From an uncultured virus (IMG/VR IMGVR_UViG_3300031963_011487) (Duplodnaviria; Heunggongvirae; Uroviricota; Caudoviricetes): a stretch of 20,000 nt of DNA. How positions within the stretch are numbered: the first letter of the stretch is position 1; the number at the start of each line of letters is the position of its first letter. The stretch lies in IMG/VR virus record IMGVR_UViG_3300031963_011487. The stretch is one strand, 5' to 3'. Positions 1 to 20,000 of this stretch are shown piece by piece. A program made the translations under genes and the position numbers. Under the pieces are notes generated by a model, which did no database searches, had not been told where the DNA came from, and saw only the letters and a list, made by a program, of their open reading frames with translations.

Positions 1-1173
1 TTAGAAAAACAGAAACAACAAAATAAAGAACTACTACAATCCGACGTATGTAAAAAATGTACTACATGTGAAAGTTCACAAACAACTACGCCCCGACCGA
101 CCGGACAAAATTCATATGTGTCAAAATCAGGACGAATAATAACCATTCCGGTAAATACAAATAGTCCAGGAAAACTCGACAGTACTAAAAAATTATATGC
201 AGCAGGACATAGAAACGGACAATTAAGTACTTCTCTACTAGTAGCAGGCACAGGTGGCGCCTATCTGTATAAGGATGTTGCTGCAAAGTGGAATCAATTA
301 GTTGCAGCTGCAAAAACTGAAGGTATTAATTTGACACATAACTGGGCATATCGTTCATTAGCCGAACAGATTCGTATAGCCAAACAAGAAGGATTGTACA
401 AACAAGAAGCACCACGAGATAGTACAAACTCTACGGGTAAAGCAGCAGATCCAGGAACTTCAAATCATGGATGGGGGTTTGCTCTTGATATAAACGTGGG
501 AAAAAGTTATACAAGTAAAAACTATCTATGGCTAAAACAAAATGCAAGTAAGTATGGATTTGCAAATACGGTAGATGGGGAACCACATCACTGGGAATAT
601 ATTGGCCCCATATCCGATCCACCAAGAGCCAGTACACCACCAACGCCAAACTCTACACCTACCACACCACCCACTCCGAAACCTGACGGTACATGCACTG
701 ACTTTTTAAGTAAAAATCAAGAAGAATGTAAAAAATGTAAATCGGCAGAACTAATAAATTCTCAAATTGATAAAGTACTACCCGATAAACAAAAATTTAC
801 AATTGTCACCCGACAGTTTGAGGGACTACAGAATTTATTCAAGTATATAGAGATATTTCCAGATTATATGACTGCTGCAATTACGGGAACCGCAGACGGA
901 AATGTAGCAAACGCATTTGGTGCTTCGCCAGGTTCGTTGGCAATCAAAGCAGATTTAACTTTACCTGGTATAAACGGAATGCGAGTAGGTGAATTATTTT
1001 GGATAGATCGTATCCCTTCTTTTTATAAAGCATTTGGAGCATTCCAGATTATGAGTATTGAAGATGTTCTCGGAACGGATGGATGGAAAACTAAAATTCA
1101 TGCCCAATTTAATTATCTAGGAGAACGTTGGAAATCGGCAATGGAATCTAGACTCAGTGGAAGAACAACATGA
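1..1173 (+). CDS. 5'-truncated probable baseplate hub/tail protein with internal M15B (VanY-like) peptidoglycan peptidase domain
   Basis: Frame is open from base 1 (LEKQKQQNKELLQSDVCKKC...), so GTG 118 is not the real start. M15B motifs: AYRSLAEQ, PGTSNHGWGFALD, WLKQNASKYGF, EPHHWEY. The C-terminal ADLTLPGINGMRVGE...FQIMSIEDVLGTDGWKTKI resembles the end of hub/late-control-D-like proteins (less certain than the peptidase call). Confidence 0.75.
   Translation, partial: LEKQKQQNKELLQSDVCKKCTTCESSQTTTPRPTGQNSYVSKSGRIITIPVNTNSPGKLDSTKKLYAAGHRNGQLSTSLLVAGTGGAYLYKDVAAKWNQLVAAAKTEGINLTHNWAYRSLAEQIRIAKQEGLYKQEAPRDSTNSTGKAADPGTSNHGWGFALDINVGKSYTSKNYLWLKQNASKYGFANTVDGEPHHWEYIGPISDPPRASTPPTPNSTPTTPPTPKPDGTCTDFLSKNQEECKKCKSAELINSQIDKVLPDKQKFTIVTRQFEGLQNLFKYIEIFPDYMTAAITGTADGNVANAFGASPGSLAIKADLTLPGINGMRVGELFWIDRIPSFYKAFGAFQIMSIEDVLGTDGWKTKIHAQFNYLGERWKSAMESRLSGRTT
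48..739 (+). repeat. 14-bp direct repeat ATGTAAAAAATGTA (48-61 and 726-739), both copies encoding CKKC
   Basis: Identical 14-mers read directly from the sequence. They flank the M15 domain and its Pro/Thr linkers. Confidence 0.8.
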
Positions 1174-1574
1174 TTGATCAAAAAATATTGGATTCTTTAT
1201 ATAAAAGTAATGAACAGCAACTAAAAGAATTCTTAGAACCTATTCCGCAACAGATATCTCCTATAGTAACACAGAAAGATGTTACTAACAAATATATGAT
1301 TAGATATTTTGTACGACAAGTAAACGATCAACTCTATGTAGTTGAAGTAAATAAACAACAATATGAAAGTTTTAAAACAAACCCACGGTTTATAACTGTT
1401 AAAATTAAATGGAAAATTATAGGAAAAAAAGAAACCACTGTACTAAGTAGCGGGGCCAAAATATACGGCGTAGATGATCAGAATCGGATTGAGGTAGAAA
1501 CTGCGGACTTGACATTTGGTGGGTTACGTAGTTACATTACAAGTTATCTGGAGTACTGGTTTTCCGAGGAATAA
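1170..1574 (+). CDS. hypothetical phage protein
   Basis: 134-aa ORF with ATGA overlap with the upstream stop, directly abutting the next gene. No catalytic motif recognised. Confidence 0.8.
   Translation: MIDQKILDSLYKSNEQQLKEFLEPIPQQISPIVTQKDVTNKYMIRYFVRQVNDQLYVVEVNKQQYESFKTNPRFITVKIKWKIIGKKETTVLSSGAKIYGVDDQNRIEVETADLTFGGLRSYITSYLEYWFSEE
1509..1538 (+). promoter_or_regulatory. possible sigma70-type promoter for the polA-like gene
   Basis: TTGACA (1509-1514), N18, TACATT (1533-1538), inside the upstream CDS and about 37 nt before ATG 1575. Confidence 0.4.
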
Positions 1575-2819
1575 ATGATTATTAGTAGTTACGTACAGTA
1601 TCAACAATTAATTCAACGTATAGATCGGGAGCAATGTATATTGATTCCGATTTTTCGTGACATACATCTGCATAGAAAAGAGAATAATATACTATGCATA
1701 GCAATTAGTTTTTTAGATCAAACATATATAATATCTATATCACACGAGGACGCCCCGTGTTTCTTGATTCCAGAGGGTTCGTATTTAACGTCAGATGACA
1801 TACAAACACTTGCCTACGTTAATAATATTCCACTATCTGAATGGGAATACTGTCCCTATATCGTTGATACACATAACCAGTTTTGGAATGTTACGGATGT
1901 AAACCGATTAATTCCGTTGTCGGTGTGGTCATCTGTACTAAAAAAATATGCAGAGAAACAATGGAAGATTGTAAATACAGTCCCGCAAAATGAAACCTAT
2001 GCGTCTACCGTAAGTATGATTAAAACATTACGGGAAATTGAAGATGCGGGAATCTGCGTGGATCGTAACGTACTCCAACAACATTTTGAATCTAAGACGT
2101 TACGTGCGTTTAAGAGTAATCTCGTTTATTCAGAATATAATCCATACACAACCACGGGTAGACCAAGCAATCGGTTTGGTGGGATTAACTTTTCTGCACT
2201 GAATAAATCCGATGGTACTCGTGATGCGTTTATCAGTCGATATGAGGAGGGTATATTGGTACAAATGGATTTTGAGGCATACCATCTCCGACTCATTGCG
2301 GATCAGTTTGATATTCCACTACCCAACACATCGTTACACACAGAACTTGCTAAAAAGTATTTTGGTACCGATGATATTACTGATGAATTGTATGCAATGA
2401 GTAAGCAAAAAACATTTGAGATCATGTATGGGATGTCTGATGAAACCTATGGCGTTCATCTATTTGAACGGGTAGTAGAATTACGGAAGTTGTTTCAGAC
2501 TACGACGGGAACGCTAGAACTACCCAGCGGAATAACAGTAGATTTCCCAGAACCAAACGCAAGTAAAATGTTTAATTATTATGTTCAATCGTTGGAAGTA
2601 ATAAAGACTTTACCTAAGTTACGTAAAATACTAGACTTATTAAAAACCACGCGGAACCACTTGATACTTTATACTTATGATAGTATCTTACTAGATATGG
2701 AACGATTTGATAAAGAATTACTTATGCAGATTGTTGCTATCTTAGAAGACAATAAAAAATTTCCTGTTCGTGTATATACGGGCACAACATATGGTAACAT
2801 TTCGGAGATACGGTTATGA
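1575..2819 (+). CDS. compact, divergent family A DNA polymerase-like protein
   Basis: EDAGICVD, TTTGRPS, motif A DFEAYHLR (2268-2291), motif B KQKTFEIMYG (2403-2432), motif C YTYDS (Asp codon at 2679). Only 414 aa. Confidence 0.85.
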   Translation: MIISSYVQYQQLIQRIDREQCILIPIFRDIHLHRKENNILCIAISFLDQTYIISISHEDAPCFLIPEGSYLTSDDIQTLAYVNNIPLSEWEYCPYIVDTHNQFWNVTDVNRLIPLSVWSSVLKKYAEKQWKIVNTVPQNETYASTVSMIKTLREIEDAGICVDRNVLQQHFESKTLRAFKSNLVYSEYNPYTTTGRPSNRFGGINFSALNKSDGTRDAFISRYEEGILVQMDFEAYHLRLIADQFDIPLPNTSLHTELAKKYFGTDDITDELYAMSKQKTFEIMYGMSDETYGVHLFERVVELRKLFQTTTGTLELPSGITVDFPEPNASKMFNYYVQSLEVIKTLPKLRKILDLLKTTRNHLILYTYDSILLDMERFDKELLMQIVAILEDNKKFPVRVYTGTTYGNISEIRL

Positions 2820-3676
2820 CATTTGAAATTGGTGTACTTGGATTGGGATACGTTGGGGGAACAGTAGCGCAAGCGTATCAACGAAAGAACGTTTCCATTC
2901 ACACGTATGATATTGATCCAAACAGAAATCCTACATGTGAAACGTTTGAAGAATTTTTGAATAAGGCAAATTTGATTTATGTTGCCGTGCCGACCCCGAT
3001 GACACGGGAAGGTGCGTGTGATACTCGGATCGTTGAGCAAGTGGTCCATGATTTGTGCATGACGGATCAGTCCAAAGTCATTATTATTAAATCGACTGTT
3101 CCGCCCGGTACCACGGAGAAGCTACAGGAACGGTACACCAATCACACCATACTATTCAGTCCAGAGTTTTTAACGGAAAGAAATGCATTAAGTGATTTCT
3201 TAAATCAGGAAGTCATGTTAATTGGAAAGTCTAAACGGGCTTCACAAGAACTTGCTGATTTGGCACTGAGTAGTCAGGCTAGTGTCACGGAGACAATACG
3301 ACTGGCTAAGGTGGTAGATGCCACAGTAGCAGAACTATATAAGTATACATCTAATTTATTCTTGGCAACCAAAGTATCATTTGCCAATGAAATGGCAGAT
3401 ATTGCAGCAAATGTCGGAGTGGAGTGGAATTCTGTGGAACGACTGCTTTTGTATGATACCCGACTAGGAAAGAGTCACTGGATGGTTCCTGGACCAGATG
3501 GTCATCGTGGATTTGGTGGTACCTGTTTTCCGAAAGATTTGTCTGCATTGATTAGTCACGCAGAATCCAATGGAGTTCCAACACCACTACTTCGTTCTGT
3601 CTGGAAACGTAATGTATTAGTAGATCGTCCCGAACGAGATTGGGAGCAAATGAAGGGACGTGCGGTGTCTGAATAA
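2816..3676 (+). CDS. ugd: UDP-glucose/GDP-mannose 6-dehydrogenase family protein (short form)
   Basis: GLGYVG Rossmann motif, VPTP, IKSTVPPGT, SPEFL, AELYKY (catalytic Lys), GFGGTCFPKD (catalytic Cys). 286 aa. Confidence 0.9.
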   Translation: MTFEIGVLGLGYVGGTVAQAYQRKNVSIHTYDIDPNRNPTCETFEEFLNKANLIYVAVPTPMTREGACDTRIVEQVVHDLCMTDQSKVIIIKSTVPPGTTEKLQERYTNHTILFSPEFLTERNALSDFLNQEVMLIGKSKRASQELADLALSSQASVTETIRLAKVVDATVAELYKYTSNLFLATKVSFANEMADIAANVGVEWNSVERLLLYDTRLGKSHWMVPGPDGHRGFGGTCFPKDLSALISHAESNGVPTPLLRSVWKRNVLVDRPERDWEQMKGRAVSE

Positions 3677-3740: not shown

Positions 3741-4142
3741 ATGGAATCAGACACACAGTTACTCTGTACATTTACAACTATTGAAGGAATTGATGCGACT
3801 ATAGAAGCAATAAAAGATTCCTATAAATTAGTATTTAATAAAGTTTATGTACTTGAAAACACCGAAGATGCAAATCAGTTGGTCTTGACATATAATGTAG
3901 CAAAGCCTACAGATGCAACGGTTACCCCACCACCGTCAACAATATCGGTTCATAGAAAAAAGCAAACGAATACCATTTACACGATTAATGCAATTAACAA
4001 ATTAATTGAAAGTAAAAATGGTGGGGTGTTAGACAAATCATATAAGATTGATTGGAATGAATTACAAAATATGGTACTGGTGACTGCCTACGGAAAACTA
4101 AAAATTGTAAATACTAAACTTGTAAAAATCATAGATCTCTAA
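3741..4142 (+). CDS. hypothetical phage protein
   Basis: 133-aa ORF filling the gap before the SSB promoter (LLCTF...SVHRKKQTNTIYTINAIN). Function not recognised. Confidence 0.8.
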   Translation: MESDTQLLCTFTTIEGIDATIEAIKDSYKLVFNKVYVLENTEDANQLVLTYNVAKPTDATVTPPPSTISVHRKKQTNTIYTINAINKLIESKNGGVLDKSYKIDWNELQNMVLVTAYGKLKIVNTKLVKIIDL

Positions 4143-4175: not shown

Positions 4176-4231
4176 ACGTGATAGGGAGTTTTAAACTCAC
4201 TAAACATCTAAACACTAAAAGGAGTAAACGT

Positions 4232-5017
4232 ATGTCACTAAACATTGCAGCACTTAAGGCAAAGCTCAATCAGTTCAACCGTCAAGGTGACCGTGGTGAG
4301 GCACTCTGGAAGCCCACTGAAGGTAAGCACGTAATTCGTATTGTTCCGTGGAAGGAAAACAAGGAAAATCCTTTTATTGAACTGTACTTCCATTATCTAG
4401 GTAATAAGACCCATCTGTCGCCTACATCATACGGCAATCGTGATCCTATCATGGAGTTTGCCGAGGCACTTGCTGCCGGTGGTACGAAGGATGATTGGGC
4501 ACAATCTCGTGTATTCCGTCCGAAGCTCCGTACGTTCGTTCCAATTATCGTTCGTGGTGAAGAAGACAAGGGCGTTCGTTTCATGTCATTCGGCAAGACG
4601 GTATATACAGAACTTCTTTCCATCATTTCCGATCCCGATTACGGCGATATCACGGATGTAAAGAACGGTCGTGACATTGTGGTTGAATACATCCCACAGG
4701 AAAAGAGTGATACGAACTTCGCTAAGACGATGGTTCGTCCAAAGCCAAATCAGACTCCTGCGGGTACCGCAGAGCAGATCCAAAAGTTCATCACAGAACA
4801 GCCAGATATTCGTTCCATCTTCAAGGAGCCCTCTTACGAGGAATTGAAGGTTGCGCTCGAACGGTATCTTGACCCAAGTAGTGGTCCAGCAGTTCCAACA
4901 CAGAAGACTGTTGAAGATACTCCCGTCGCTTCACCGACAGCTACAAAGTCGGCAACCACACAGAAGTCTACGTCAGTCAAGGATATGATTGACGAGTTCG
5001 ACGAAGTATTTAATTAA
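4232..5017 (+). CDS. single-stranded DNA-binding protein, T4 gp32-like
   Basis: ATG 4232 follows AAGGAG. WKP...VIRIVP, FGKTVY, DITDVKNGRD motifs, then a low-complexity linker and acidic tail (IDEFDEVFN). Confidence 0.85.
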   Translation: MSLNIAALKAKLNQFNRQGDRGEALWKPTEGKHVIRIVPWKENKENPFIELYFHYLGNKTHLSPTSYGNRDPIMEFAEALAAGGTKDDWAQSRVFRPKLRTFVPIIVRGEEDKGVRFMSFGKTVYTELLSIISDPDYGDITDVKNGRDIVVEYIPQEKSDTNFAKTMVRPKPNQTPAGTAEQIQKFITEQPDIRSIFKEPSYEELKVALERYLDPSSGPAVPTQKTVEDTPVASPTATKSATTQKSTSVKDMIDEFDEVFN

Positions 5018-5090: not shown

Positions 5091-6227
5091 ATGGCAAAAG
5101 AAAAGAAGGTTATTCAAGAACCTGACCGTGATGAGTTAGCGTCCCTCATTGCAGAGTCACTAAATAAAATGAACAAGGATAGTGATCAAATTGCATTCTT
5201 CCTTGATGGACGAGAAAATACACCCACCGACTTTACCGATTTTATTTCAACGGGTAATACGATGTTGGACATTGCAATTAGTAATCGTCCACATGGTGGT
5301 ATTGCAGTTGGTCGTATTACGGAACTTACTGGATTGGAAGGATCTGGCAAGTCCTTGATTGGTGCGCAGTTAATTGCCAACACGCAGAAACGTGGCGGGG
5401 TGGGTGTATTGATTGACACAGAAACCGCAGTCAATCCAGAGTTCTTTAAGGCGGTTGGTATTGATACAAATAAATTAGTTTATGTTCATCTCGCAACCGT
5501 TGAGGAAATTTTTGATGCTGTCACCACAATTATTGAAAAGGTGCGTACTGGAAAGGATAAAGACAAACTGGTCACGATTGTCGTTGACTCCGTTGCCGCT
5601 GCGTCAACCAAGAAAGAAATGGAAGCCGATTTTGGAAAAGACGGATATGCTACAGATAAAGCAATCATTATCTCCAAAGCAATGCGTAAGATTACTGGAT
5701 TGCTTGGAAGAGAGCGAATTGCACTAGTCTTCACAAATCAGTTACGTCAAAAGATGAACGCAATGGCGTTTAGTGATCCGTGGACGACTTCGGGTGGAAA
5801 GGCAATTGCGTTCCATGCATCCACTCGTCTCCGACTCAATCTGATGGGGAAGATCAGTAACTCCGCAGGTGATGTGATTGGTGTAAAGGTGAAGGCAAAT
5901 GTAATCAAGAACCGATTGGGACCGCCACATCGTACTGCCGAATTCCAAATTTATTTCAATCGTGGTATTGATGATGCAAGTTCGTGGTTGGATGTGATGA
6001 AGGAAAACAAGTTGGTTAAGCAGGCAGGTGCTTGGTATACGTATGTGGATCCGACCACTGGTGAAGAAACGAAGTTCCAATCCAAAGAGTTTGCCAAGTT
6101 CCTTGATGCAGATGCGGAACGAAAGGAAGTCATCTATCAAGCAATTTGTGATTCACTTATCATGAAGTATCAGACAGAATTTGATCCAGAAGCAATTAGT
6201 ATCACGGGAGCATCCGATGACGAATAA
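5091..6227 (+). CDS. recA: RecA/UvsX-family recombinase
   Basis: ISTG, GRITELTGLEGSGKS (Walker A), IDTE, IVVDSVAA (Walker B), FTNQLR, TTSGGKAIAFHASTRL, KNR, AGAWY. Confidence 0.95.
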   Translation: MAKEKKVIQEPDRDELASLIAESLNKMNKDSDQIAFFLDGRENTPTDFTDFISTGNTMLDIAISNRPHGGIAVGRITELTGLEGSGKSLIGAQLIANTQKRGGVGVLIDTETAVNPEFFKAVGIDTNKLVYVHLATVEEIFDAVTTIIEKVRTGKDKDKLVTIVVDSVAAASTKKEMEADFGKDGYATDKAIIISKAMRKITGLLGRERIALVFTNQLRQKMNAMAFSDPWTTSGGKAIAFHASTRLRLNLMGKISNSAGDVIGVKVKANVIKNRLGPPHRTAEFQIYFNRGIDDASSWLDVMKENKLVKQAGAWYTYVDPTTGEETKFQSKEFAKFLDADAERKEVIYQAICDSLIMKYQTEFDPEAISITGASDDE

Positions 6228-6459
6228 TCTAGAAGATGTTGTTCAGTTAGTCATGCGTGCATATACTGAAACGCACGGTGACGAATTTGATATTACGCCG
6301 ATGTTTGAATTGGAAGTACGGAAGGCGTTAATGCAGAAGTATTGTTCTAATTTACCATCGCATACATACACGATTAATAAAGGTAATTTGATGGGACAAT
6401 GGAACGTGAACCTTGCTAGTAATGCAACTAGTTCACATAACATCTTGTTACATGGTTGA
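6217..6459 (+). CDS. small hypothetical protein (80 aa)
   Basis: ATG 6217 after GGGAG. Overlaps both neighbours and fills the recA-exonuclease gap. Confidence 0.65.
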   Translation: MTNNLEDVVQLVMRAYTETHGDEFDITPMFELEVRKALMQKYCSNLPSHTYTINKGNLMGQWNVNLASNATSSHNILLHG

Positions 6460-7501
6460 TCTCCAGAGTGTTTTTCATAACATGAAGTTTGAAAACGACG
6501 AACAGGGCATGGGATATAATTCTCGTGTCCTGTTAGTCGATGGCCTCAATACCTTTCTACGATCTTATACAGTTGTTCCATCAATGAATGATGATGGTCA
6601 TCACATTGGCGGTATGATAGGATTTTTAAAAAGTATTGGGCTTGCTATTCGTACATTCAAACCTACACGTTGTATTGTAGTGTTTGATGGAAAGGGTGGA
6701 AGTCAAAGACGGAGAAAGATTTATCCGCAGTATAAGGCAAATCGTAAACCACCAGTTCGGTTGAATCGTGCATATGATTTAACCACCGATGAACAAGAAA
6801 AAGAAAATATGAAATTTCAATTAGTATCACTGATTGAAATGTTAGAGTGTTTACCCGTTACTATTATTGCTTTAGATAACGTAGAAGCAGATGATGTGAT
6901 TGGACAGTTAAGTCAACTGGTAACTGCGGAAGGTGGTCATAGTATTATTTATTCTACTGATAAAGATTTCTTACAACTCGTTTCCGAATCAGTTAAAGTA
7001 TATAATCCTGTTAAAAAGAAAACATTTGATGTTGATGTGGTTCTAGAAGAATATGGAATACATCCGAAACATTTTTATTTTTACAGAGCACTTGACGGAG
7101 ATAACAGCGATAACATTGACGGAATTAAAGGAGTGGGACAAGCAACATTAAAGAAATATATTCCAGAAATTGTTGATCCGTCGATGGATATTAATTTACA
7201 GTTTATTGAGAACAAATATGTTGACGTTAAAAAGTTACCTAAAGTTATTAGCAATATACTTGACAATCGTGATATCGTGGAACGCAATATTCAGTTAATG
7301 AATTTACATGAAGGTATGATGTCACCTGACGCACGTATGAAAGTAGTACATAAGTTTCAAGATACCGTTACGTCATTTCATAAATATGACTTGACAAAAA
7401 TGATGATGAGAACTAAGTTATTAGGTGCGTTCCCGAATTACGATTCGTGGATTGCACAGACGTTTATTCCTCTCAATAGATTTAAGCATGACACAAACTG
7501 A
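6452..7501 (+). CDS. 5'-3' exonuclease/flap endonuclease (PolI N-terminal/T4 RNase H family)
   Basis: LLVDGLN, VVFDG, YKANR, EADDVI, STDKDFLQL, GDNSDNIDGIKGVG (H3TH motif). ATG 6452 is preferred over TTG 6413. Confidence 0.95.
   Translation: MVDLQSVFHNMKFENDEQGMGYNSRVLLVDGLNTFLRSYTVVPSMNDDGHHIGGMIGFLKSIGLAIRTFKPTRCIVVFDGKGGSQRRRKIYPQYKANRKPPVRLNRAYDLTTDEQEKENMKFQLVSLIEMLECLPVTIIALDNVEADDVIGQLSQLVTAEGGHSIIYSTDKDFLQLVSESVKVYNPVKKKTFDVDVVLEEYGIHPKHFYFYRALDGDNSDNIDGIKGVGQATLKKYIPEIVDPSMDINLQFIENKYVDVKKLPKVISNILDNRDIVERNIQLMNLHEGMMSPDARMKVVHKFQDTVTSFHKYDLTKMMMRTKLLGAFPNYDSWIAQTFIPLNRFKHDTN
7391..7419 (+). promoter_or_regulatory. possible internal sigma70-type promoter for helicase
   Basis: TTGACA (7391-7396), N17, TAAGTT (7414-7419), about 70 nt before ATG 7488. 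Confidence 0.45.
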
Positions 7502-8873
7502 TACGACCGTAGATAATCTAGCTAAATATGGACCAACGTTTCAAGCAAAGGTATTGGCAAATTTACTTTCATCAACCGATTTCTTACAACAGTCGTTAGA
7601 TGTATTAAATCCTAAATTCTTTGAAAGTGATGCGGGTCAATGGATTGTACAAAAGACAATGGAGTATTTTACTGATTATCGTTCTACTCCTACACTGGAA
7701 GTATTTAAGATTGAACTGGATAGAATCAATGACGATGTATTGAAGATTGCCGTCAAGGAACAATTGCGATCTGCGTTTCAACGAAAGAACGATGATGATC
7801 TAGAATATGTCAAAGATAGTTTTCTAGACTTTGCAAAGAATCAAGCAATTAAAACTGCCATCATTAAGTCCGTTGATCTATTACAAATCGGTAGATATAG
7901 TGAAATTAAAAGTTTGGTTGATAATGCATTGAAAGCAGGACAGCCACGAAACATTGGTCATGATTGGAAAAAGGATATTGAAATTCGTCTCGCAGGTGAA
8001 TCACGTGATGTAGTTGCCACGGGATGGGATGCAATTGATCTACTTATTGGTGGTGGACTTGCTGCTGGTGAGTTGGGTGTGATTGCGGCTCCGTCTGGTA
8101 TTGGTAAGAGTTGGGCACTTGCAACGATTGGAGCCAATGCAGCACGTGCAGGAAAACGTGTGGTATACTACACATTAGAACTCAACGAAAATTATGTAGG
8201 ATTACGATACGATACGATCTATACAGGAATTGAACCTGGTAATATTCCGAATAATGCAGACGCAGTTCGTAATATTGTAGAAAGTATTCCCGGTGACATT
8301 ATTATCAAATACTATCCAACGAGTGCTATTACAGTACATACGTTACGAGCACATTTGGAAAATTTGATTTCTAGTAAGATGAAGCCCGATCTGATGATCA
8401 TTGATTACGCAGATCTTATGCGTTCCACTGAACGGGTGGAAGCACGCCATCAAGAACTTGGAGAAATTTATAAAGAACTTCGTGGACTTGCGGGAGAAAT
8501 GAAACTTCCCGTATGGACCGCAAGTCAAACACAACGATCCAGTATTCAAGATGAAGTCATTCAAGCAGACAAGATTGCATCATCATACGAAAAGATTATG
8601 AACGCAGATTTGGTGATTTCACTTTCTCGTAAATTGGAAGATAAAGCAAACCATACTGGACGAGCCCACGTGATGAAAAATCGGTTTGGTGCCGATGGTA
8701 TTACATTACCTGTGTTTATGAATACAAGTCTTGGTAAAATTGAAATTTATGATGAGAATTCTTCCAAGGGAATTTTATTGAAGAAACAAATGCAAGCAGG
8801 TGAGGGGATGTTAAAGAAAGCACTTGCTAAAAAGTTTTCTGAATTACACGATGATATTTTAGAAGACGAATGA
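7488..8873 (+). CDS. replicative DnaB/gp41-like helicase
   Basis: TGW..ID, APSGIGKS (Walker A), YTLE, IIDYADLM (Walker B), WTASQ, KNRFG. Likely start at ATG 7488. Confidence 0.93.
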   Translation: MTQTDTTVDNLAKYGPTFQAKVLANLLSSTDFLQQSLDVLNPKFFESDAGQWIVQKTMEYFTDYRSTPTLEVFKIELDRINDDVLKIAVKEQLRSAFQRKNDDDLEYVKDSFLDFAKNQAIKTAIIKSVDLLQIGRYSEIKSLVDNALKAGQPRNIGHDWKKDIEIRLAGESRDVVATGWDAIDLLIGGGLAAGELGVIAAPSGIGKSWALATIGANAARAGKRVVYYTLELNENYVGLRYDTIYTGIEPGNIPNNADAVRNIVESIPGDIIIKYYPTSAITVHTLRAHLENLISSKMKPDLMIIDYADLMRSTERVEARHQELGEIYKELRGLAGEMKLPVWTASQTQRSSIQDEVIQADKIASSYEKIMNADLVISLSRKLEDKANHTGRAHVMKNRFGADGITLPVFMNTSLGKIEIYDENSSKGILLKKQMQAGEGMLKKALAKKFSELHDDILEDE

Positions 8874-11046: not shown

Positions 11047-11421
11047 ATGAAGGATAAGAAGGACTCGTTAAATAAAATAGAACAAAAGGTGTTTGATTTA
11101 TTAAAAAAATTACGAGTACAGTTTCAAACGCAAGTAAAAATTGATAAATATAATGTTGACTTTTTGGTAAACGATACATATATAATAGAGTGTTATGGAG
11201 ATTTTTGGCACTGCAACCCACAGAAATATAAACCCGATTATTTCAATCGCGGAAAGAAAAAAACTGCAAGAGAAATTTGGGAACGTGATTTGGAAAGAAA
11301 GAAACGGTTTGAAGAACTTGGGTATAAGTTTATAAACTTATGGGAATGTGATATACGCGATAACACTAAAAAAATAAAAACAAAATTAAAGAGATATCTT
11401 AATAGAGGTGGTTATGATTAA
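11047..11421 (+). CDS. Vsr/DUF559-like endonuclease
   Basis: VDFL..IIECYGDFWH, D..RK, GY.FI.LWECD pattern. Lys-rich protein in AT-rich DNA. Confidence 0.85.
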   Translation: MKDKKDSLNKIEQKVFDLLKKLRVQFQTQVKIDKYNVDFLVNDTYIIECYGDFWHCNPQKYKPDYFNRGKKKTAREIWERDLERKKRFEELGYKFINLWECDIRDNTKKIKTKLKRYLNRGGYD

Positions 11422-14780: not shown

Positions 14781-15296
14781 ATGTGGATGGGATTGGTGGC
14801 GTTATTACAAATAACAGAACCTACAGTACTTGATAAACCAATTCGTATGCCGTATAAGGTGAAACGGGATACGACAAAAAATTTCATTGTATTACATTAT
14901 GATGATAGTGATAGTTATTTAGGAACACGTAAATGGTTAATTAAAAAACGAAATAGTTATCATTATTACATTCAACGTTCTGGTGTAATTGTAAAGATGG
15001 TAGATCCGAAGTATCAAGCAAATCACGCAGGTGCTTCGTTGTGGAGAAGTTATCTTCGGATGAACAAGTATAGTATTGGTATTTGTCTAGAGAATAAACC
15101 TCCGCAACTATATACCGATAAACAATATAATAGTTTGGCGTGGTTAATTAAAGTATTACAAAAACGATATCCAGACTCCACAAGTCGGTTTATTCTTGGG
15201 CATTCAGACGTAGCAGTTCCTCGTGGAAGAAAGCACGATCCTGGTCCACATTTTGAATGGGAGAAACTTTTAAAACTTTTGTTGGGGGAAGCGTGA
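14781..15296 (+). CDS. N-acetylmuramoyl-L-alanine amidase (Amidase_2/AmpD-like)
   Basis: IVLHY, SYHYYI, ANHAG, SIGICLE, GHSDVA...RKHDPG (Zn ligands H/H/D). Confidence 0.9.
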   Translation: MWMGLVALLQITEPTVLDKPIRMPYKVKRDTTKNFIVLHYDDSDSYLGTRKWLIKKRNSYHYYIQRSGVIVKMVDPKYQANHAGASLWRSYLRMNKYSIGICLENKPPQLYTDKQYNSLAWLIKVLQKRYPDSTSRFILGHSDVAVPRGRKHDPGPHFEWEKLLKLLLGEA

Positions 15297-15678: not shown

Positions 15679-16398
15679 ATGGAAAAGTCAAAGTTTGAAA
15701 GGTTTATTGGCAAGTATAATTTGGGTGGTTCGTGTGAAAGTGTAGTACTGAAGTCGGAAGGAAGTACGTTATCGGTACGTTCTATTTCCGACGATAAGAA
15801 TGTCTTGGGTGAGATCGTCGCATCCAGCATCAGTTTCCCAGAGGGTGAGTTTGGTATTTATGACACAAAGAAGCTCCGTTCTATCTTGAGTGTACTGGAA
15901 GAGCAACTAACCGCCACTGCTCAGACCAGTGGCGATAAGATTACTGCTCTTAATATTACTGACGGGTCTACAAAGACAACGTTCGTTCTTGCCGATCAGT
16001 CGGTGATTCCCACGGTTCCTGAGTTAAAGAAGCTCCCACCGATGGATTTTACAATTTCCCTTGATCCAAAGTTCGTAAATACCTTCATCAAGGCAAAGGG
16101 TGCGTTGAGTGAAGTGGAAACATTTACGGTCATGAGTGAAGGAAATGACAACACCGCATCTGTGGTTCTTGGTTATTCCTCCACAAACACCAACCGTATC
16201 GTTATCACTGCAACTACGAACACCGCTGTTCAGATGGAACCAATTAGTTTTTCTGCAAACTATCTCCGAGAGATTCTTTCTGCAAACAAGGAAGTAACGA
16301 ATGGTACTCTGGAAATCTCGTCAAAGGGTCTTGCCAAGGCATCATTTGAATTTGATGGGACAACCTCTACATACTACTTGGTACAAGTCAAGTATTAA
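15679..16398 (+). CDS. DNA sliding clamp, T4 gp45-like
   Basis: 239 aa, beta-rich, with EFGIYD..KL, L.ISSKGLA..F and YYLV patterns. Context between polB and clamp loader. Confidence 0.8.
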   Translation: MEKSKFERFIGKYNLGGSCESVVLKSEGSTLSVRSISDDKNVLGEIVASSISFPEGEFGIYDTKKLRSILSVLEEQLTATAQTSGDKITALNITDGSTKTTFVLADQSVIPTVPELKKLPPMDFTISLDPKFVNTFIKAKGALSEVETFTVMSEGNDNTASVVLGYSSTNTNRIVITATTNTAVQMEPISFSANYLREILSANKEVTNGTLEISSKGLAKASFEFDGTTSTYYLVQVKY

Positions 16399-16404
16399 TC
16401 GGTT

Positions 16405-17664
16405 ATGGAAATTATTAAAATACACACAAGTAACAAAGATAAGTTAGAGAACTTACTGAAGACTACGGTAATCCCAGGTGATTTCTGGGATTACACACTT
16501 CCGTATGAGTATGATTGGAAGAATCATGATTTTTATGATTTGACTTGTGAGCATTATACTGACCTGCCAGAGTTTGTGTGGTCCCCGTACTTGAAGCAAC
16601 GGTATCTGATTAATGTTATGGTGAAGAACCAGCAAGAAAAAGATATTTTACACAACGTACTTGGGATGAAAGAAAACAAAACAGGATATATTCATTATGA
16701 ACTGGAAGAAAATCCCCTTACCGATTATGAATATGAATACACCCATAAAATTCATCCAAAATATCCGTTATATGTTATTACCAAGGGTCGATGGCAACGT
16801 ACTCTTACGATTGACACGCTTGAGGACATGGGAGTAGATTTTCGTATTTGTGTGGAACCCGACGAATACGATAACTATGCAGCAAACGTAGACATAAAGA
16901 AGATTATCAAACTTCCAGAGAATTTCAGCAAACGAAAGCAGGGGAGTATTCCTGTTCGTAACTTTGTATGGCAACATGCAGTTGACGCTGGTCATAAGAA
17001 GCACTGGGTGATTGACGATAATATTCATTGGTTCTTCCGATGGAATAATAATCTCAAGAAGAAACTTCGTGATGGGGTCTTCTTTAGAATCATGGAAGAT
17101 TTCAGTGATCGGTATGAAAACTTGGGATTGGTTGGTTGTCAGTATGCGTCATTCGTACCAGCAACAGAACCAGGTCGTAGTCAGTTTATTAAAAATACCA
17201 GAGTGTATAGTTGCATTCTGATTAATCATGAACTACTGGATACGCGTCTGGAAGAACGGTGGAGAGGAACGTATAATGAAGATACGGATCTTTCCCTACG
17301 TGTATTGTCCACGGGTGATCTCTGCACCGTCAACTTTAATACGTTACTCAGTGGTAAGCAAACCACGGGAACGATGCGTGGCGGAAATACCGATACGATC
17401 TATGAAGGTGGTGTCTATTCTGGATATAAAAAGAAGTTTGATGAATTGAAAGAGAACTGGGGTAAGATTGTGAAGTTGACGCATGACAAGCACGTCGATG
17501 GTCGTCCACACCACCATATTGCTTATACAAAAATCTTTAAGCAAGACTTGGTATTGAAAGAGGGCGTGTCGTTAGAACCAAAGATTAATGAATACAATAT
17601 GATACTAACTAAGATGACAACCAACAGTACAAATGATGTTGCAACTGAACATGAAGATATCTAA
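16405..17664 (+). CDS. TAGT/GREB1-like GT-A glycosyltransferase (putative DNA base glycosyltransferase) with N-terminal extension
   Basis: KYPLYVITKGR, VEPDEY..Y, RNFVW, HWVIDDNI, NTRVYSCIL, WRGTYNEDTDLSLRVL, K..T..MRGGNT. Confidence 0.8.
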   Translation: MEIIKIHTSNKDKLENLLKTTVIPGDFWDYTLPYEYDWKNHDFYDLTCEHYTDLPEFVWSPYLKQRYLINVMVKNQQEKDILHNVLGMKENKTGYIHYELEENPLTDYEYEYTHKIHPKYPLYVITKGRWQRTLTIDTLEDMGVDFRICVEPDEYDNYAANVDIKKIIKLPENFSKRKQGSIPVRNFVWQHAVDAGHKKHWVIDDNIHWFFRWNNNLKKKLRDGVFFRIMEDFSDRYENLGLVGCQYASFVPATEPGRSQFIKNTRVYSCILINHELLDTRLEERWRGTYNEDTDLSLRVLSTGDLCTVNFNTLLSGKQTTGTMRGGNTDTIYEGGVYSGYKKKFDELKENWGKIVKLTHDKHVDGRPHHHIAYTKIFKQDLVLKEGVSLEPKINEYNMILTKMTTNSTNDVATEHEDI

Positions 17665-18337
17665 GAGATTTATTCGTACATGGCAGGGTGATGCTCCAAT
17701 ACCTCCGATGTTTGAGGAGTGGTGGCAGATGTTTCACGATATACATCCTGGATATGAGTTTATGACGATCACCGATTACGATCATTTACAAATTCCACCT
17801 GATATTAAAGACATCATGCAGTATATTACCACGTATTCAGGTATTTCAGATGTTATTAGGGCAGTGGCTCTTTACCAATATGGCGGTATTTACGTTGATA
17901 CAGATGTTATGCCTCTCAAAACATTTGAACCGTTGACAGAACTTGATAAGCCATTTGCTGCAAAAAGGTCATCTAAGTCATTTGAAGTTGCAGTCATGGG
18001 ATCTCCACCACAACATCCTGCAATGAAAGCAGTGTTGGATGCACTTCCGAATCACTGGAAAAAATATCACGATAAGTCTAATGCAGTATCTACGGGACCT
18101 GCATTTTTCTCCTCGGTTCTGTTTGGTCGCCCAGATGTAGTCCACCTTCCAACGAGTACATTTTATCCGTATAATGGATGGGGAGCACCGAGCCGTGAAG
18201 AAAAATTGAAAATTTTTGAAAACAAAGAAAACTTCCCGCCAGAGATGATTGCTGCACACTTCTCAAATCATACATGGGGTTCAAACAAAAATAGAAAAAA
18301 GTATATTCCTCCAAAAACTCATGATTGGTGGGAGTAG
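17651..18337 (+). CDS. GT32-like DXD glycosyltransferase
   Basis: W...HPGYE, SDVIR..ALYQYGGIYVDTD, TGP, FYPY and AAHF..TW motifs. ATG 17651 overlaps the upstream CDS. Confidence 0.88.
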   Translation: MKISKRFIRTWQGDAPIPPMFEEWWQMFHDIHPGYEFMTITDYDHLQIPPDIKDIMQYITTYSGISDVIRAVALYQYGGIYVDTDVMPLKTFEPLTELDKPFAAKRSSKSFEVAVMGSPPQHPAMKAVLDALPNHWKKYHDKSNAVSTGPAFFSSVLFGRPDVVHLPTSTFYPYNGWGAPSREEKLKIFENKENFPPEMIAAHFSNHTWGSNKNRKKYIPPKTHDWWE

Positions 18338-18343
18338 TTTAAA

Positions 18344-19561
18344 ATGTATCAATCATACTTTGACAAATTCCTAAACATGACTCCGTATCTAGAAATAGGT
18401 GCGGAGGAGTGGGAACATATAAAACAGACGTTCTCCGTAGACGACATTAAAGAAAGTATGGCAACGGTTTGTATGACGTATCCTATTCCTTATAATGATA
18501 TTACGGAAGAAGATGCATATCGTGGTTATATGGATTTAAAAGCAGTTCGTTGGGATAAATTATATACTGCTGGGGAATGGTTTTATAGATCCACGAATTC
18601 CCGTTATGAATTAAGTCCGTATTATTTTTCCAAGTCAACGACGGGTAATTCTGCGTCCAATTACTTCCAACAACAGAATCGGTGGGAGGCAAATTCTAAT
18701 CGGTCGCCTGGACCCGCTAAGACGTGGCGTACGAAGAGTACAATGATTACCTTGATGGGATCACTGTTTACATTAAAGGTTCCGAAAATTGATAAGGGAA
18801 CCTTACGGGGTTGTTTACATCTACGAAAGTATACCTGTTCACAGTTCCGACCCAGTACGGCAAAAGCACTGTATGATAAGTTTAACGCAAAGAATGTACT
18901 GGACTTTTCTATGGGTTGGGGTGATCGTCTTGCTGGATTCTATGCAGGGAATACAACCGAACATTATGTTGGGTTAGATCCAAAAGCAGATAATCATCCC
19001 ATTTATAACGCACAAAGAAAGTTTTATAATACACATACGACATTCTTTGAAAACGATAAAGAAAGTGAATTTCATATAAGTCCTGCGGAAGAATTTGATT
19101 TTAAACCATATACAAATCACTTTGATATGGTATTTACTTCACCACCGTACTTTAACGTAGAACATTATAGTCAAGACGACACCCAGAGTTTTAAACGATA
19201 TAAAGAAGTAGAAATGTGGAGTGAACACTTTCTCCACAAGGTATTGACTAACATCTATCCCAGTGTTAAATTACATGGTATAGTCGCCATTAACATTTCT
19301 GATGTATTTTCTACGTCTGGTAAAGGACAGAAACGTTGGTTAGAAATTACCAATCCCATGAATGATCATTTAAAATCATTAGGCATGGAATACATGGGAG
19401 CAATTGGTATGGAGATGGCGAAACGTCCGAATAGTGCAGGAGCAGGTATGGTGTTTGAAGGAAGTGCGCCAAACGAATGGACGGATGACGCAATGACTAG
19501 AGCAGATAATTCAAATAATAAAACATTCTGCGAACCGATTTTTATGTGGAGAAAAGTATGA
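18344..19561 (+). CDS. SAM-dependent amino (N4-C/N6-A) DNA methyltransferase-like protein
   Basis: QFRP..AK, motif I VLDFSMGWGDRL, YVGLDP, motif IV FTSPPYF (SPPY at 19139-19150), terminal EPIF.W. Confidence 0.82.
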   Translation: MYQSYFDKFLNMTPYLEIGAEEWEHIKQTFSVDDIKESMATVCMTYPIPYNDITEEDAYRGYMDLKAVRWDKLYTAGEWFYRSTNSRYELSPYYFSKSTTGNSASNYFQQQNRWEANSNRSPGPAKTWRTKSTMITLMGSLFTLKVPKIDKGTLRGCLHLRKYTCSQFRPSTAKALYDKFNAKNVLDFSMGWGDRLAGFYAGNTTEHYVGLDPKADNHPIYNAQRKFYNTHTTFFENDKESEFHISPAEEFDFKPYTNHFDMVFTSPPYFNVEHYSQDDTQSFKRYKEVEMWSEHFLHKVLTNIYPSVKLHGIVAINISDVFSTSGKGQKRWLEITNPMNDHLKSLGMEYMGAIGMEMAKRPNSAGAGMVFEGSAPNEWTDDAMTRADNSNNKTFCEPIFMWRKV

Positions 19562-20000
19562 ATGAAAATACGCTCTGGGTGGAGCGCTATCGACCGAGTA
19601 CATTGGAAGGATATGTAGGGAATGATACCGTTCGTGCCAAGATTGAACAGTATATCACCACGCAAGATATCCCTCATCTGCTGTTCTACGGAACGGCTGG
19701 CACGGGTAAGACCACTGCCGCCAAGATTCTCGTCAAGAACATTGATTGTGATTATATGTTTATCAATGCATCTGATGAACGTGGTATTGATACGGTTCGT
19801 GATAAGATCAAGGGATTTGCGGCAACGATTGGATTCAAGCCACTCAAGATCGTGGTATTGGATGAGGCAGACTTCTTAGGACGAGAAGCACAGCCTGCAC
19901 TTCGTAATCTGATGGAGGCGTATTCTGCGAGTACACGATTCATTCTCACTGCTAATTATGTAGAACGGATTATTGATCCACTGGTGAGTCGAACGCAGGT
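19558..20000 (+). CDS. clamp loader AAA+ subunit (RFC/gp44-like), 3'-truncated
   Basis: Not in the ORF track. Manual translation gives MNENTLWVERYRP...PHLLFYGTAGTGKTT...INASDERGIDTVR...LDEAD...ALRNLME...RFILTANY...SRT. ATGA overlap with the MTase stop. Confidence 0.95.
   Translation, partial: MNENTLWVERYRPSTLEGYVGNDTVRAKIEQYITTQDIPHLLFYGTAGTGKTTAAKILVKNIDCDYMFINASDERGIDTVRDKIKGFAATIGFKPLKIVVLDEADFLGREAQPALRNLMEAYSASTRFILTANYVERIIDPLVSRTQ

Follow-up and report, generated by a model that had tools for sequence, protein, structure and literature searches.

Why should a phage that encodes its own family B replicase keep a second, miniature DNA polymerase of the Pol I type? The question is raised by a 20,000-nucleotide stretch of DNA (hereafter the window) from an uncultured virus of the class Caudoviricetes (IMG/VR record IMGVR_UViG_3300031963_011487), in which an open reading frame (ORF) encodes a 414-residue protein resembling family A polymerases. 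An earlier note, drawn from the sequence alone, had described this protein as a miniature PolA with a substituted steric gate and a truncated thumb. We find that the gene almost certainly belongs, as judged by homology and synteny, to divPolA1, a family of divergent polymerases named in 2024. The gene is not new, being one more member of that family. Its interest lies in the invariant replacement of the family A steric gate across a large, strongly selected family, in the bearing that a His gate and a missing thumb have on sugar selectivity and processivity, and in what may explain why a large clade of aquatic phages keeps a second polymerase while the main one is exchanged. The protein is compact (about 47 kDa) and was modelled with confidence.

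The similarity of the protein to Pfam PF00476 (DNA_pol_A) is marginal (E 6.4e-6; 25.8 bits, cut-off 34.3) and restricted to residues 181-291. A tblastn search aligned its residues 100-399 with gene 1 of Flavobacterium phage immuto at 32.8% identity (E 2e-37); the match is present in four immuto records, where it is annotated as 'DNA polymerase family A'. Immuto is the exemplar of divPolA1, which was defined by computer analysis in 14 phages (Yutin et al. 2024, PMC11348598). According to that description, divPolA1 is carried beside a regular polymerase, which may be of family A, B or C; it combines a conserved palm with a truncated thumb and with an exonuclease (exo) domain in which other residues stand in for all three catalytic Asp, and replication genes follow it in a conserved arrangement (PMC11348598). 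Homology to the exemplar, a catalytic palm, a truncated thumb, a second, regular polymerase and downstream replication genes are all found in the window. Conversely, the protein departs from canonical family A polymerases in scoring below the PF00476 cut-off, in lacking the Glu steric gate and in lacking HDE in motif C.

We placed the active site using three independent alignments with Klenow: phmmer, a 76-homologue profile (E 4.6e-10) and hhalign (97%, E 8.9e-11, 230 columns). Motif A is gap-free and concordant in all of them. The readings of the earlier note were borne out. Both catalytic Asp residues are retained (D232 and D369, equivalent to D705 and D882), His237 stands at the position of E710 in each of the three alignments, Tyr273 replaces R754, and Y368-D369-S370 corresponds to H881-D882-E883, giving YDS for HDE. 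Other Klenow residues have identical counterparts, namely R668 (R196), R712 (R239), K758 (K277), F762 (F281), Y766 (Y285), N845 (N334) and Q849 (Q338). In Pol I, the 2'-OH gate is formed by E710 with Y766, the triphosphate is held by R754 and K758, and E883 and H881 are located at the primer terminus.

The same residues recur throughout the family. Among 270 family sequences (median length 428 residues), H237, D232 and R196 are present in all, K277, Y285, Q338, Y368 and D369 in 269 each, F281 in 266 and N334 in 261. Tyr273 is found in 248 of them and Ser370 in 240, with Ala at the latter position in 27 more. Judging from this sequence conservation, the active-site substitutions are not due to chance. 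The ratio of nonsynonymous to synonymous substitutions (dN/dS, Nei-Gojobori) was 0.059-0.180 in the 40 listed of 52 pairs with 80-99.5% amino-acid identity. Of 80 related loci, 74 contain an intact ORF of 380 residues or more; the other six have none, several of them being cut at a contig end. At the sequence level divPolA1 is under strong purifying selection and bears no sign of pseudogenisation, which the earlier note had named as an outcome that would count against it.

The 14 genomes of the original description are a small fraction of the family. Of 5023 candidates in a word-indexed search, 2758 proteins (90% clusters) reached E <= 0.001. When representatives at 50% identity were scanned exhaustively with HMMER, 927 matched, 704 of them at E <= 1e-10 and 370 at E <= 1e-30; the lengths of the best 150 of the 927 are 263-477 residues. 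In IMG/VR, at least 600 stretches were matched, and 587 of the 600 listed encode a relative. The words 'steric' and 'histidine' are absent from the text of the paper that defined the family, figures aside (PMC11348598). A reclassification of PolA enzymes published in 2023 distinguished 19 clusters, none of which is described, in the part of that article available to us, as a thumb-truncated enzyme of about 420 residues (PMC10201439).

The earlier note had also argued from the distance between the EDAG and TGR motifs that most of the thumb is missing. The distance given for the phage protein was correct (38 residues, E156 to T194), as was the conclusion; the value of roughly 100 quoted for Pol I was too low, since E541 and T666 of Klenow are 125 residues apart in the phmmer alignment. 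The difference between the two spacings amounts to about 87 missing thumb residues. Directly counted, the Klenow chain positions without a counterpart are 236-311 in the phmmer alignment and 242-328 in the profile alignment, i.e., 76-87 residues. What is left in the model is a stump with short helices at residues 164-170 and 173-176. E. coli Pol I remains active when its thumb is truncated, with reduced DNA binding, processivity and frameshift fidelity (Minnick et al. 1996, as cited in the available text of PMC10061031).

Structure prediction placed the whole protein within the Pol I fold. The AlphaFold2 model, built on a 76-sequence alignment, has a mean pLDDT of 96.0, a pTM of 0.92 and no residue below 50. 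Its best VIA-align match is the large fragment of Bst Pol I (4dqi_A; Z 25.9, root-mean-square deviation 3.6 A, 387 of the 414 residues aligned), and the 50 matches listed are all Pol I large fragments (Z 24.2-25.9). The Foldseek matches listed are likewise family A DNA polymerases throughout (apicoplast polymerase, Pol theta, Pol nu, Bst, Klenow and M. smegmatis Pol1). Klenow, Bst and KlenTaq can be aligned with the protein at motifs TGR, A, B, 6 and C. According to the model, the polymerase is a whole Klenow-type enzyme in miniature. It differs from the Pol I large fragments in lacking the thumb residues, in an exo domain shorter by about 55 residues and in the replacement of E710 by His, R754 by Tyr, H881 by Tyr and E883 by Ser. 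Unlike Pol I, it has no fused 5'-3' exonuclease, that activity being assigned to a separate downstream gene.

Because residues 1-410 of the model span residues 302-876 of Bst Pol I, the N-terminal domain would correspond to a reduced 3'-5' exonuclease-like fold. At the sequence level nothing of the exonuclease was recognised, in agreement with the earlier note, which had seen no clear exonuclease motif: hhalign of the N-terminal 145 residues (24 homologues) with the Klenow exo domain gave a probability of 0.07%, and when the whole family profile was aligned with Klenow, the polymerase domain alone was matched. Candidate relics of the ExoII and ExoIII motifs picked out by eye in this domain were unsupported and were dropped. 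As in Bst and Taq, the exo-like domain is presumed to be inactive. Across 24 diverse homologues, D29, H33, D75 and P114 do not vary, and N37, H57 and N110 hardly do; this supposedly dead domain may harbour a repurposed site or an interface.

The polymerase gene heads a conserved block within a phage replication and nucleotide-metabolism module, and all long ORFs of the window are on the + strand (Table 1). The order of the block is orf134, divPolA1, orf133, gp32, RecA/UvsX, flap endonuclease (FEN), DnaB and ribonucleotide reductase (RNR). Related loci with at least 6 kb of downstream sequence (38 loci) retain most of its genes, as indicated in the table, RNR being present in 27 of them. In the 27 loci that extend at least 9 kb downstream, orf133 is found in 27 and gp32, RecA, FEN and DnaB in 25 each. 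The immuto record has the same arrangement: divPolA1, two hypothetical genes, a protein that binds single-stranded DNA (SSB), a recombinase, a 5'-3' exonuclease, DnaB and RNR. The immuto enzyme resembles that of the window in size (about 410-450 residues), in its conserved palm residues, truncated thumb and motif-less exo-like domain, in heading this block and in coexisting with a regular polymerase. The two differ in that they are only 33% identical and that the clade of the window gene uses PolB as its regular polymerase.

Table 1. Genes of the window and parts of the polymerase gene, with their positions
Feature	Position	Strand	Remarks
VanY-type peptidase, also matching a tape-measure PHROG	1-1173	+	Cell-wall hydrolase type, window start
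orf134, 134-residue orphan	1170..1574	+	TAA stop abuts the polymerase ATG
divPolA1-type family A polymerase-like gene	1575..2819	+	ORF with ATG start, 414 residues
N-terminal domain (residues 1-140), predicted reduced 3'-5' exonuclease-like fold	1575..1994	+	Exo motifs unrecognisable
Thumb stump (about residues 160-180)	2052..2114	+	Short helices in the model
Motif A, DFEAYHLR (Klenow DYSQIELR)	2268..2291	+	Catalytic Asp232, steric-gate position His237, Arg239
Motif B, YAMSKQKTFEIMYG	2391..2432	+	Tyr273 substituted; Lys277, Phe281, Tyr285 retained
Motif C, YTYDSILLD	2670..2696	+	YDS for HDE
UDP-glucose/GDP-mannose dehydrogenase-like (UGDH-like) gene	2816-3676	+	Start overlaps the polymerase stop (ATGA)
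orf133, 133-residue orphan between polymerase and gp32	3741..4142	+	38/38 loci
gp32-like ssDNA-binding protein	4178..5017	+	PF08804, E 9e-15; 36/38 loci
RecA/UvsX-like recombinase	5091..6227	+	PF00154, E 1.9e-52; 36/38 loci
5'-3' exonuclease / FEN	6413..7501	+	PF02739, E 4.1e-35; 35/38 loci
DnaB-like replicative helicase	7425..8873	+	PF03796, E 5.5e-22; 34/38 loci
Class II-type RNR, two thioredoxins, dUTPase	between DnaB and PolB	+	Window annotation
Small DUF559/MTES_1575 restriction-endonuclease-like ORF	11047-11421		Wedged between the two thioredoxin genes
T4 gp43-type family B DNA polymerase (PolB), 839 residues	12260..14779	+	PF00136, E 5.7e-46; exo PF03104, E 7.1e-23
Amidase_2 gene	14781-15296	+	Cell-wall hydrolase type, directly after PolB, inside the replication module
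Sliding-clamp-like protein	15679..16398	+	phrog_223 'DNA polymerase processivity factor', E 7.3e-13
TET-associated glycosyltransferase (TAGT), DXD glycosyltransferase, methyltransferase-like gene	16405-19561	+	Consecutive; TAGT E 8.1e-38
Clamp-loader AAA+ subunit	19546..19998	+	PF00004, E 5.7e-16; PF13177, E 7.4e-8; cut by the window end

The components of a separate replicase that the earlier note had listed, PolB, a clamp and a loader, are all in the window, as Pfam or PHROG matches; the clamp is a clamp-like protein and the loader a fragment. The nearest relative of the window PolB is the enzyme of Microcystis phage Mel-JY01 (44.5% identity), followed by those of T4-like cyanophages (about 32%). 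Questions that need whole genomes were put to five large relatives, G002 to G006, among which G002 is 90% and G004 67% complete, G005 (217.7 kb with terminal repeats) is 100% complete, and G003 has a divPolA1 protein 58% identical to ours; a further record, G001 (21 kb, 12% complete), gave no match to the polymerase protein. Each of the five encodes one intact PolB of 837-854 residues. None has a PF00476 match above the cut-off, and the four sub-threshold matches are the divPolA1 genes themselves. The earlier note had also suggested looking for a separate primase. One was found in G003, a 300-residue protein with a CHC2 zinc ribbon and with DNAG_N (28 bits) and Toprim_2 matches above their cut-offs, and homologues at 43% identity are present in G005 and G006, such that three of the five large relatives encode a DnaG-type primase. 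No such gene was found in G002 or G004. These DnaG/T4 gp61-like primase genes (L082:1414-2316 on the - strand in G003, L083 in G005, L084 in G006) are tens of kilobases away from the DnaB/divPolA1 block.

On the strength of the sequence and the model, we consider it moderately likely that divPolA1 is a distributive auxiliary DNA polymerase that works beside the PolB replicase in gap filling or, with FEN, in Okazaki fragment maturation. The protein is a minimal Pol I-type enzyme in which a palm and shortened fingers are combined with a mere stump of a thumb and a motif-less, reduced exo-like N-terminal domain, and it would act as an active, template-directed, distributive and non-proofreading DNA polymerase. 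As it lacks the thumb tip, weak binding to the duplex and short-patch synthesis are to be expected. T4-like aquatic phages of a large clade retain divPolA1 at the head of a fixed replication and recombination block, in addition to a processive replicase. Most economically, the job of Pol I would in these phages be split over separate genes, divPolA1 filling gaps and displacing primers for FEN; alternatively, it might extend the intermediates of recombination that gp32 and RecA produce. The steric-gate His, invariant in the family, probably continues to exclude or sense the 2'-OH, beside the retained Y285, and Tyr for R754 and Ser or Ala for E883 would alter the handling of the triphosphate and of the primer terminus. 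In support of an active enzyme, the two-metal Asp pair and the residues that contact primer, template and dNTP (R196, K277, F281, Y285, N334 and Q338) are retained. The gap-filling role put forward in the earlier note fits the truncated thumb, these retained residues and the fixed SSB-RecA-FEN-DnaB block; the role itself we infer.

Several observations weigh against this interpretation. T4-type phages without divPolA1 mature their Okazaki fragments by means of RNase H and the replicase, and a dedicated gap-filling enzyme is thus not obviously needed. R754 and E883 are important for catalysis by Klenow, and their loss could mean a different substrate or chemistry. Gap filling explains neither the two conserved orphans orf134 and orf133 that flank the polymerase nor the invariant polar cluster D29/H33/D75 in a domain thought to be dead. 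Since the gene order of the whole region is conserved, the proximity of FEN, SSB and RecA says little about a common pathway. Lastly, divPolA1 is known from computation, and among the documents searched its name occurs only in Yutin et al. (2024) and its preprint.

The orphan neighbours and the truncated thumb bring to mind the CcPol-MP system. In the S. aureus SCCmec element, the A-family polymerase CcPol, whose exo domain is partial and whose thumb is shortened, acts in priming when it is in complex with MP, a small protein with an oligonucleotide-binding (OB) fold, according to the portions available of Bebel et al. 2020 (PMC7581432) and Rice 2023 (PMC10061031), and of PMC10201439. By these descriptions, it also shares with divPolA1 a mobile or viral genome and a neighbourhood of small proteins and a helicase. 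A truncated PolA that starts DNA or RNA chains de novo for DnaB, with orf134 or orf133 as partner, nevertheless appears very unlikely here. The reduced exo domain, the thumb stump, the two small conserved orphans, orf134 looking translationally coupled to the polymerase, and the presence of the helicase in the same block all speak for it. Against it, the occurrence of a canonical DnaG-type primase in three of five large relatives, including the complete G005, makes a priming role for divPolA1 unnecessary. The orf134 model matches no solved chain, and the partner of CcPol, an OB-fold SSB, sits between polymerase and helicase, a position that orf133 alone occupies. CcPol systems are found in mobile elements of Bacillota and not in phages. 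We regard it as highly improbable that divPolA1 uses ribonucleotides, be it as an RNA polymerase or as a mixed rNTP/dNTP polymerase. YDS resembles HDS, which is motif C of T7 RNA polymerase, and the gate Glu and E883 are lost throughout, His237 being present in 270 of 270 sequences and Ser or Ala replacing E883 in 267. T7-type RNA polymerases, however, have Gly at the steric-gate position, and His is a bulky residue that could block the 2'-OH much like Glu. All 414 residues align within the Pol I large fragment, which leaves no room for an N-terminal promoter-binding domain, and the structural matches listed, from both Foldseek and VIA-align, are all to family A DNA polymerases. The authors who defined divPolA1 judged that it most likely retains DNA polymerase activity, and they weighed an RNA polymerase role for another divergent family, divPolA2 of barbaviruses (PMC11348598). 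The latter is also a second, PolA-like gene beside a regular PolB, but it differs in its unrelated N-terminal globular domain, its variable neighbourhood and its structural matches to RNA polymerases (PMC11348598). The proposal of the earlier note that the protein primes or incorporates ribonucleotides thus found no support.

Its other suggestion, adaptation to modified nucleotides, came out as weakly disfavoured. The window contains TAGT, another glycosyltransferase and a methyltransferase-like gene, which together probably form a DNA hypermodification cluster; a TET/JBP gene is absent from the window. A UGDH-like gene overlaps the stop codon of the polymerase. TAGT was found by family search in three of the five large relatives. 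These genes speak for a polymerase specialised for copying hypermodified phage DNA, or for incorporating modified bases that the replicase handles poorly. The same family search did not find TAGT in G004 or in the complete G005, and as G005 keeps divPolA1, the polymerase is not tied to that modification system; the UGDH-like gene, for its part, is present in only 6 of the 38 loci. The range of regular polymerases in divPolA1 phages, from family A, B or C (PMC11348598), suggests that the role is not bound to a particular DNA chemistry, and T-even phages copy hydroxymethylcytosine DNA with PolB alone, as stated in the available part of PMC10201439. We therefore consider such a specialisation very improbable. 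A catalytically dead scaffold, in which the fold is kept as an adaptor of the replisome or of recombination, would be consistent with the loss of the R754 and E883 equivalents and with the sub-threshold Pfam score. It is extremely improbable in light of the retained catalytic pattern, which a scaffold would not require: the equivalents of the metal-binding Asp residues, K758, Y766, R668, N845 and Q849 are kept in 261-270 of 270 sequences.

Although an auxiliary DNA polymerase is the reading that we prefer, the invariant His, Tyr for R754, Ser or Ala for E883, the orphan neighbours and the D29/H33/D75 cluster keep a more unusual specificity possible. In its most elaborate form, divPolA1 would be the catalytic core of a three-part enzyme with orf134 and orf133, with a sugar or triphosphate specificity unlike that of characterised family A polymerases, which we deem unlikely. 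If true, such an enzyme could possibly carry out a Pol-alpha-like extension of very short RNA primers made by a DnaG-type primase, or tolerate ribonucleotide termini, before hand-off to the replicase. This arrangement would explain why divPolA1 is fixed while the replicase, of family A, B or C, is swapped.

Of the two orphans, orf134 is a possible partner of the polymerase as far as its sequence context goes. A GAGG motif lies 5 nucleotides upstream of the polymerase ATG, at the junction of the two genes. A homologue on the same strand, within 1.5 kb upstream of the polymerase, was found at 58 of the 70 loci with more than 500 nucleotides of upstream sequence, and at 61 of 80 overall. A further homologue of orf134 is the last gene of the immuto record (hhalign 98.5%, E 3.2e-15), which would precede gene 1 if the genome is permuted. 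Because gene order is conserved region-wide and orf134 borders the peptidase gene on its other side, its adjacency to the polymerase is weak evidence for a partnership. For the AlphaFold2 model of orf134 (pLDDT 91.1), 48,161 PDB chains yielded no structural counterpart (best Z 2.5). The protein has no match in Pfam or PHROG, nor do its longer homologues; in BFVD only four proteins were matched, all uncharacterised and from uncultured Caudovirales, and in the Atlas the scores stayed below 0.9. The homologues in immuto phages are longer owing to an N-terminal extension with a repeated YxGxYH-like motif. This upstream family is not mentioned in the section of the 2024 paper that defines divPolA1 (PMC11348598).

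The second orphan, orf133, has no match in Pfam, PHROG or Atlas, and the best hit of a profile search against the PDB had an E value of 0.19. Its invariant residues include C9, H71, R72, N77, Y80, N83, N86, N93, D98 and W105. Its position in the order polymerase, small ORF, SSB and, further on, helicase resembles the slot occupied by MP in CcPol operons.

A few features of the module deserve mention in their own right. The UGDH-like gene product matches the N-terminal and central domains of its family and not the C-terminal one, and its sporadic occurrence among the related loci marks it as a variable insert in the module. As listed, the ORFs of FEN and DnaB have 77 nucleotides in common, and the first 197 residues of the DnaB-like protein have no Pfam match; the true start of DnaB is probably at a later codon. 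The DUF559/MTES_1575 ORF is present at only 4 of the 80 related loci and resembles a mobile, homing-type insertion.

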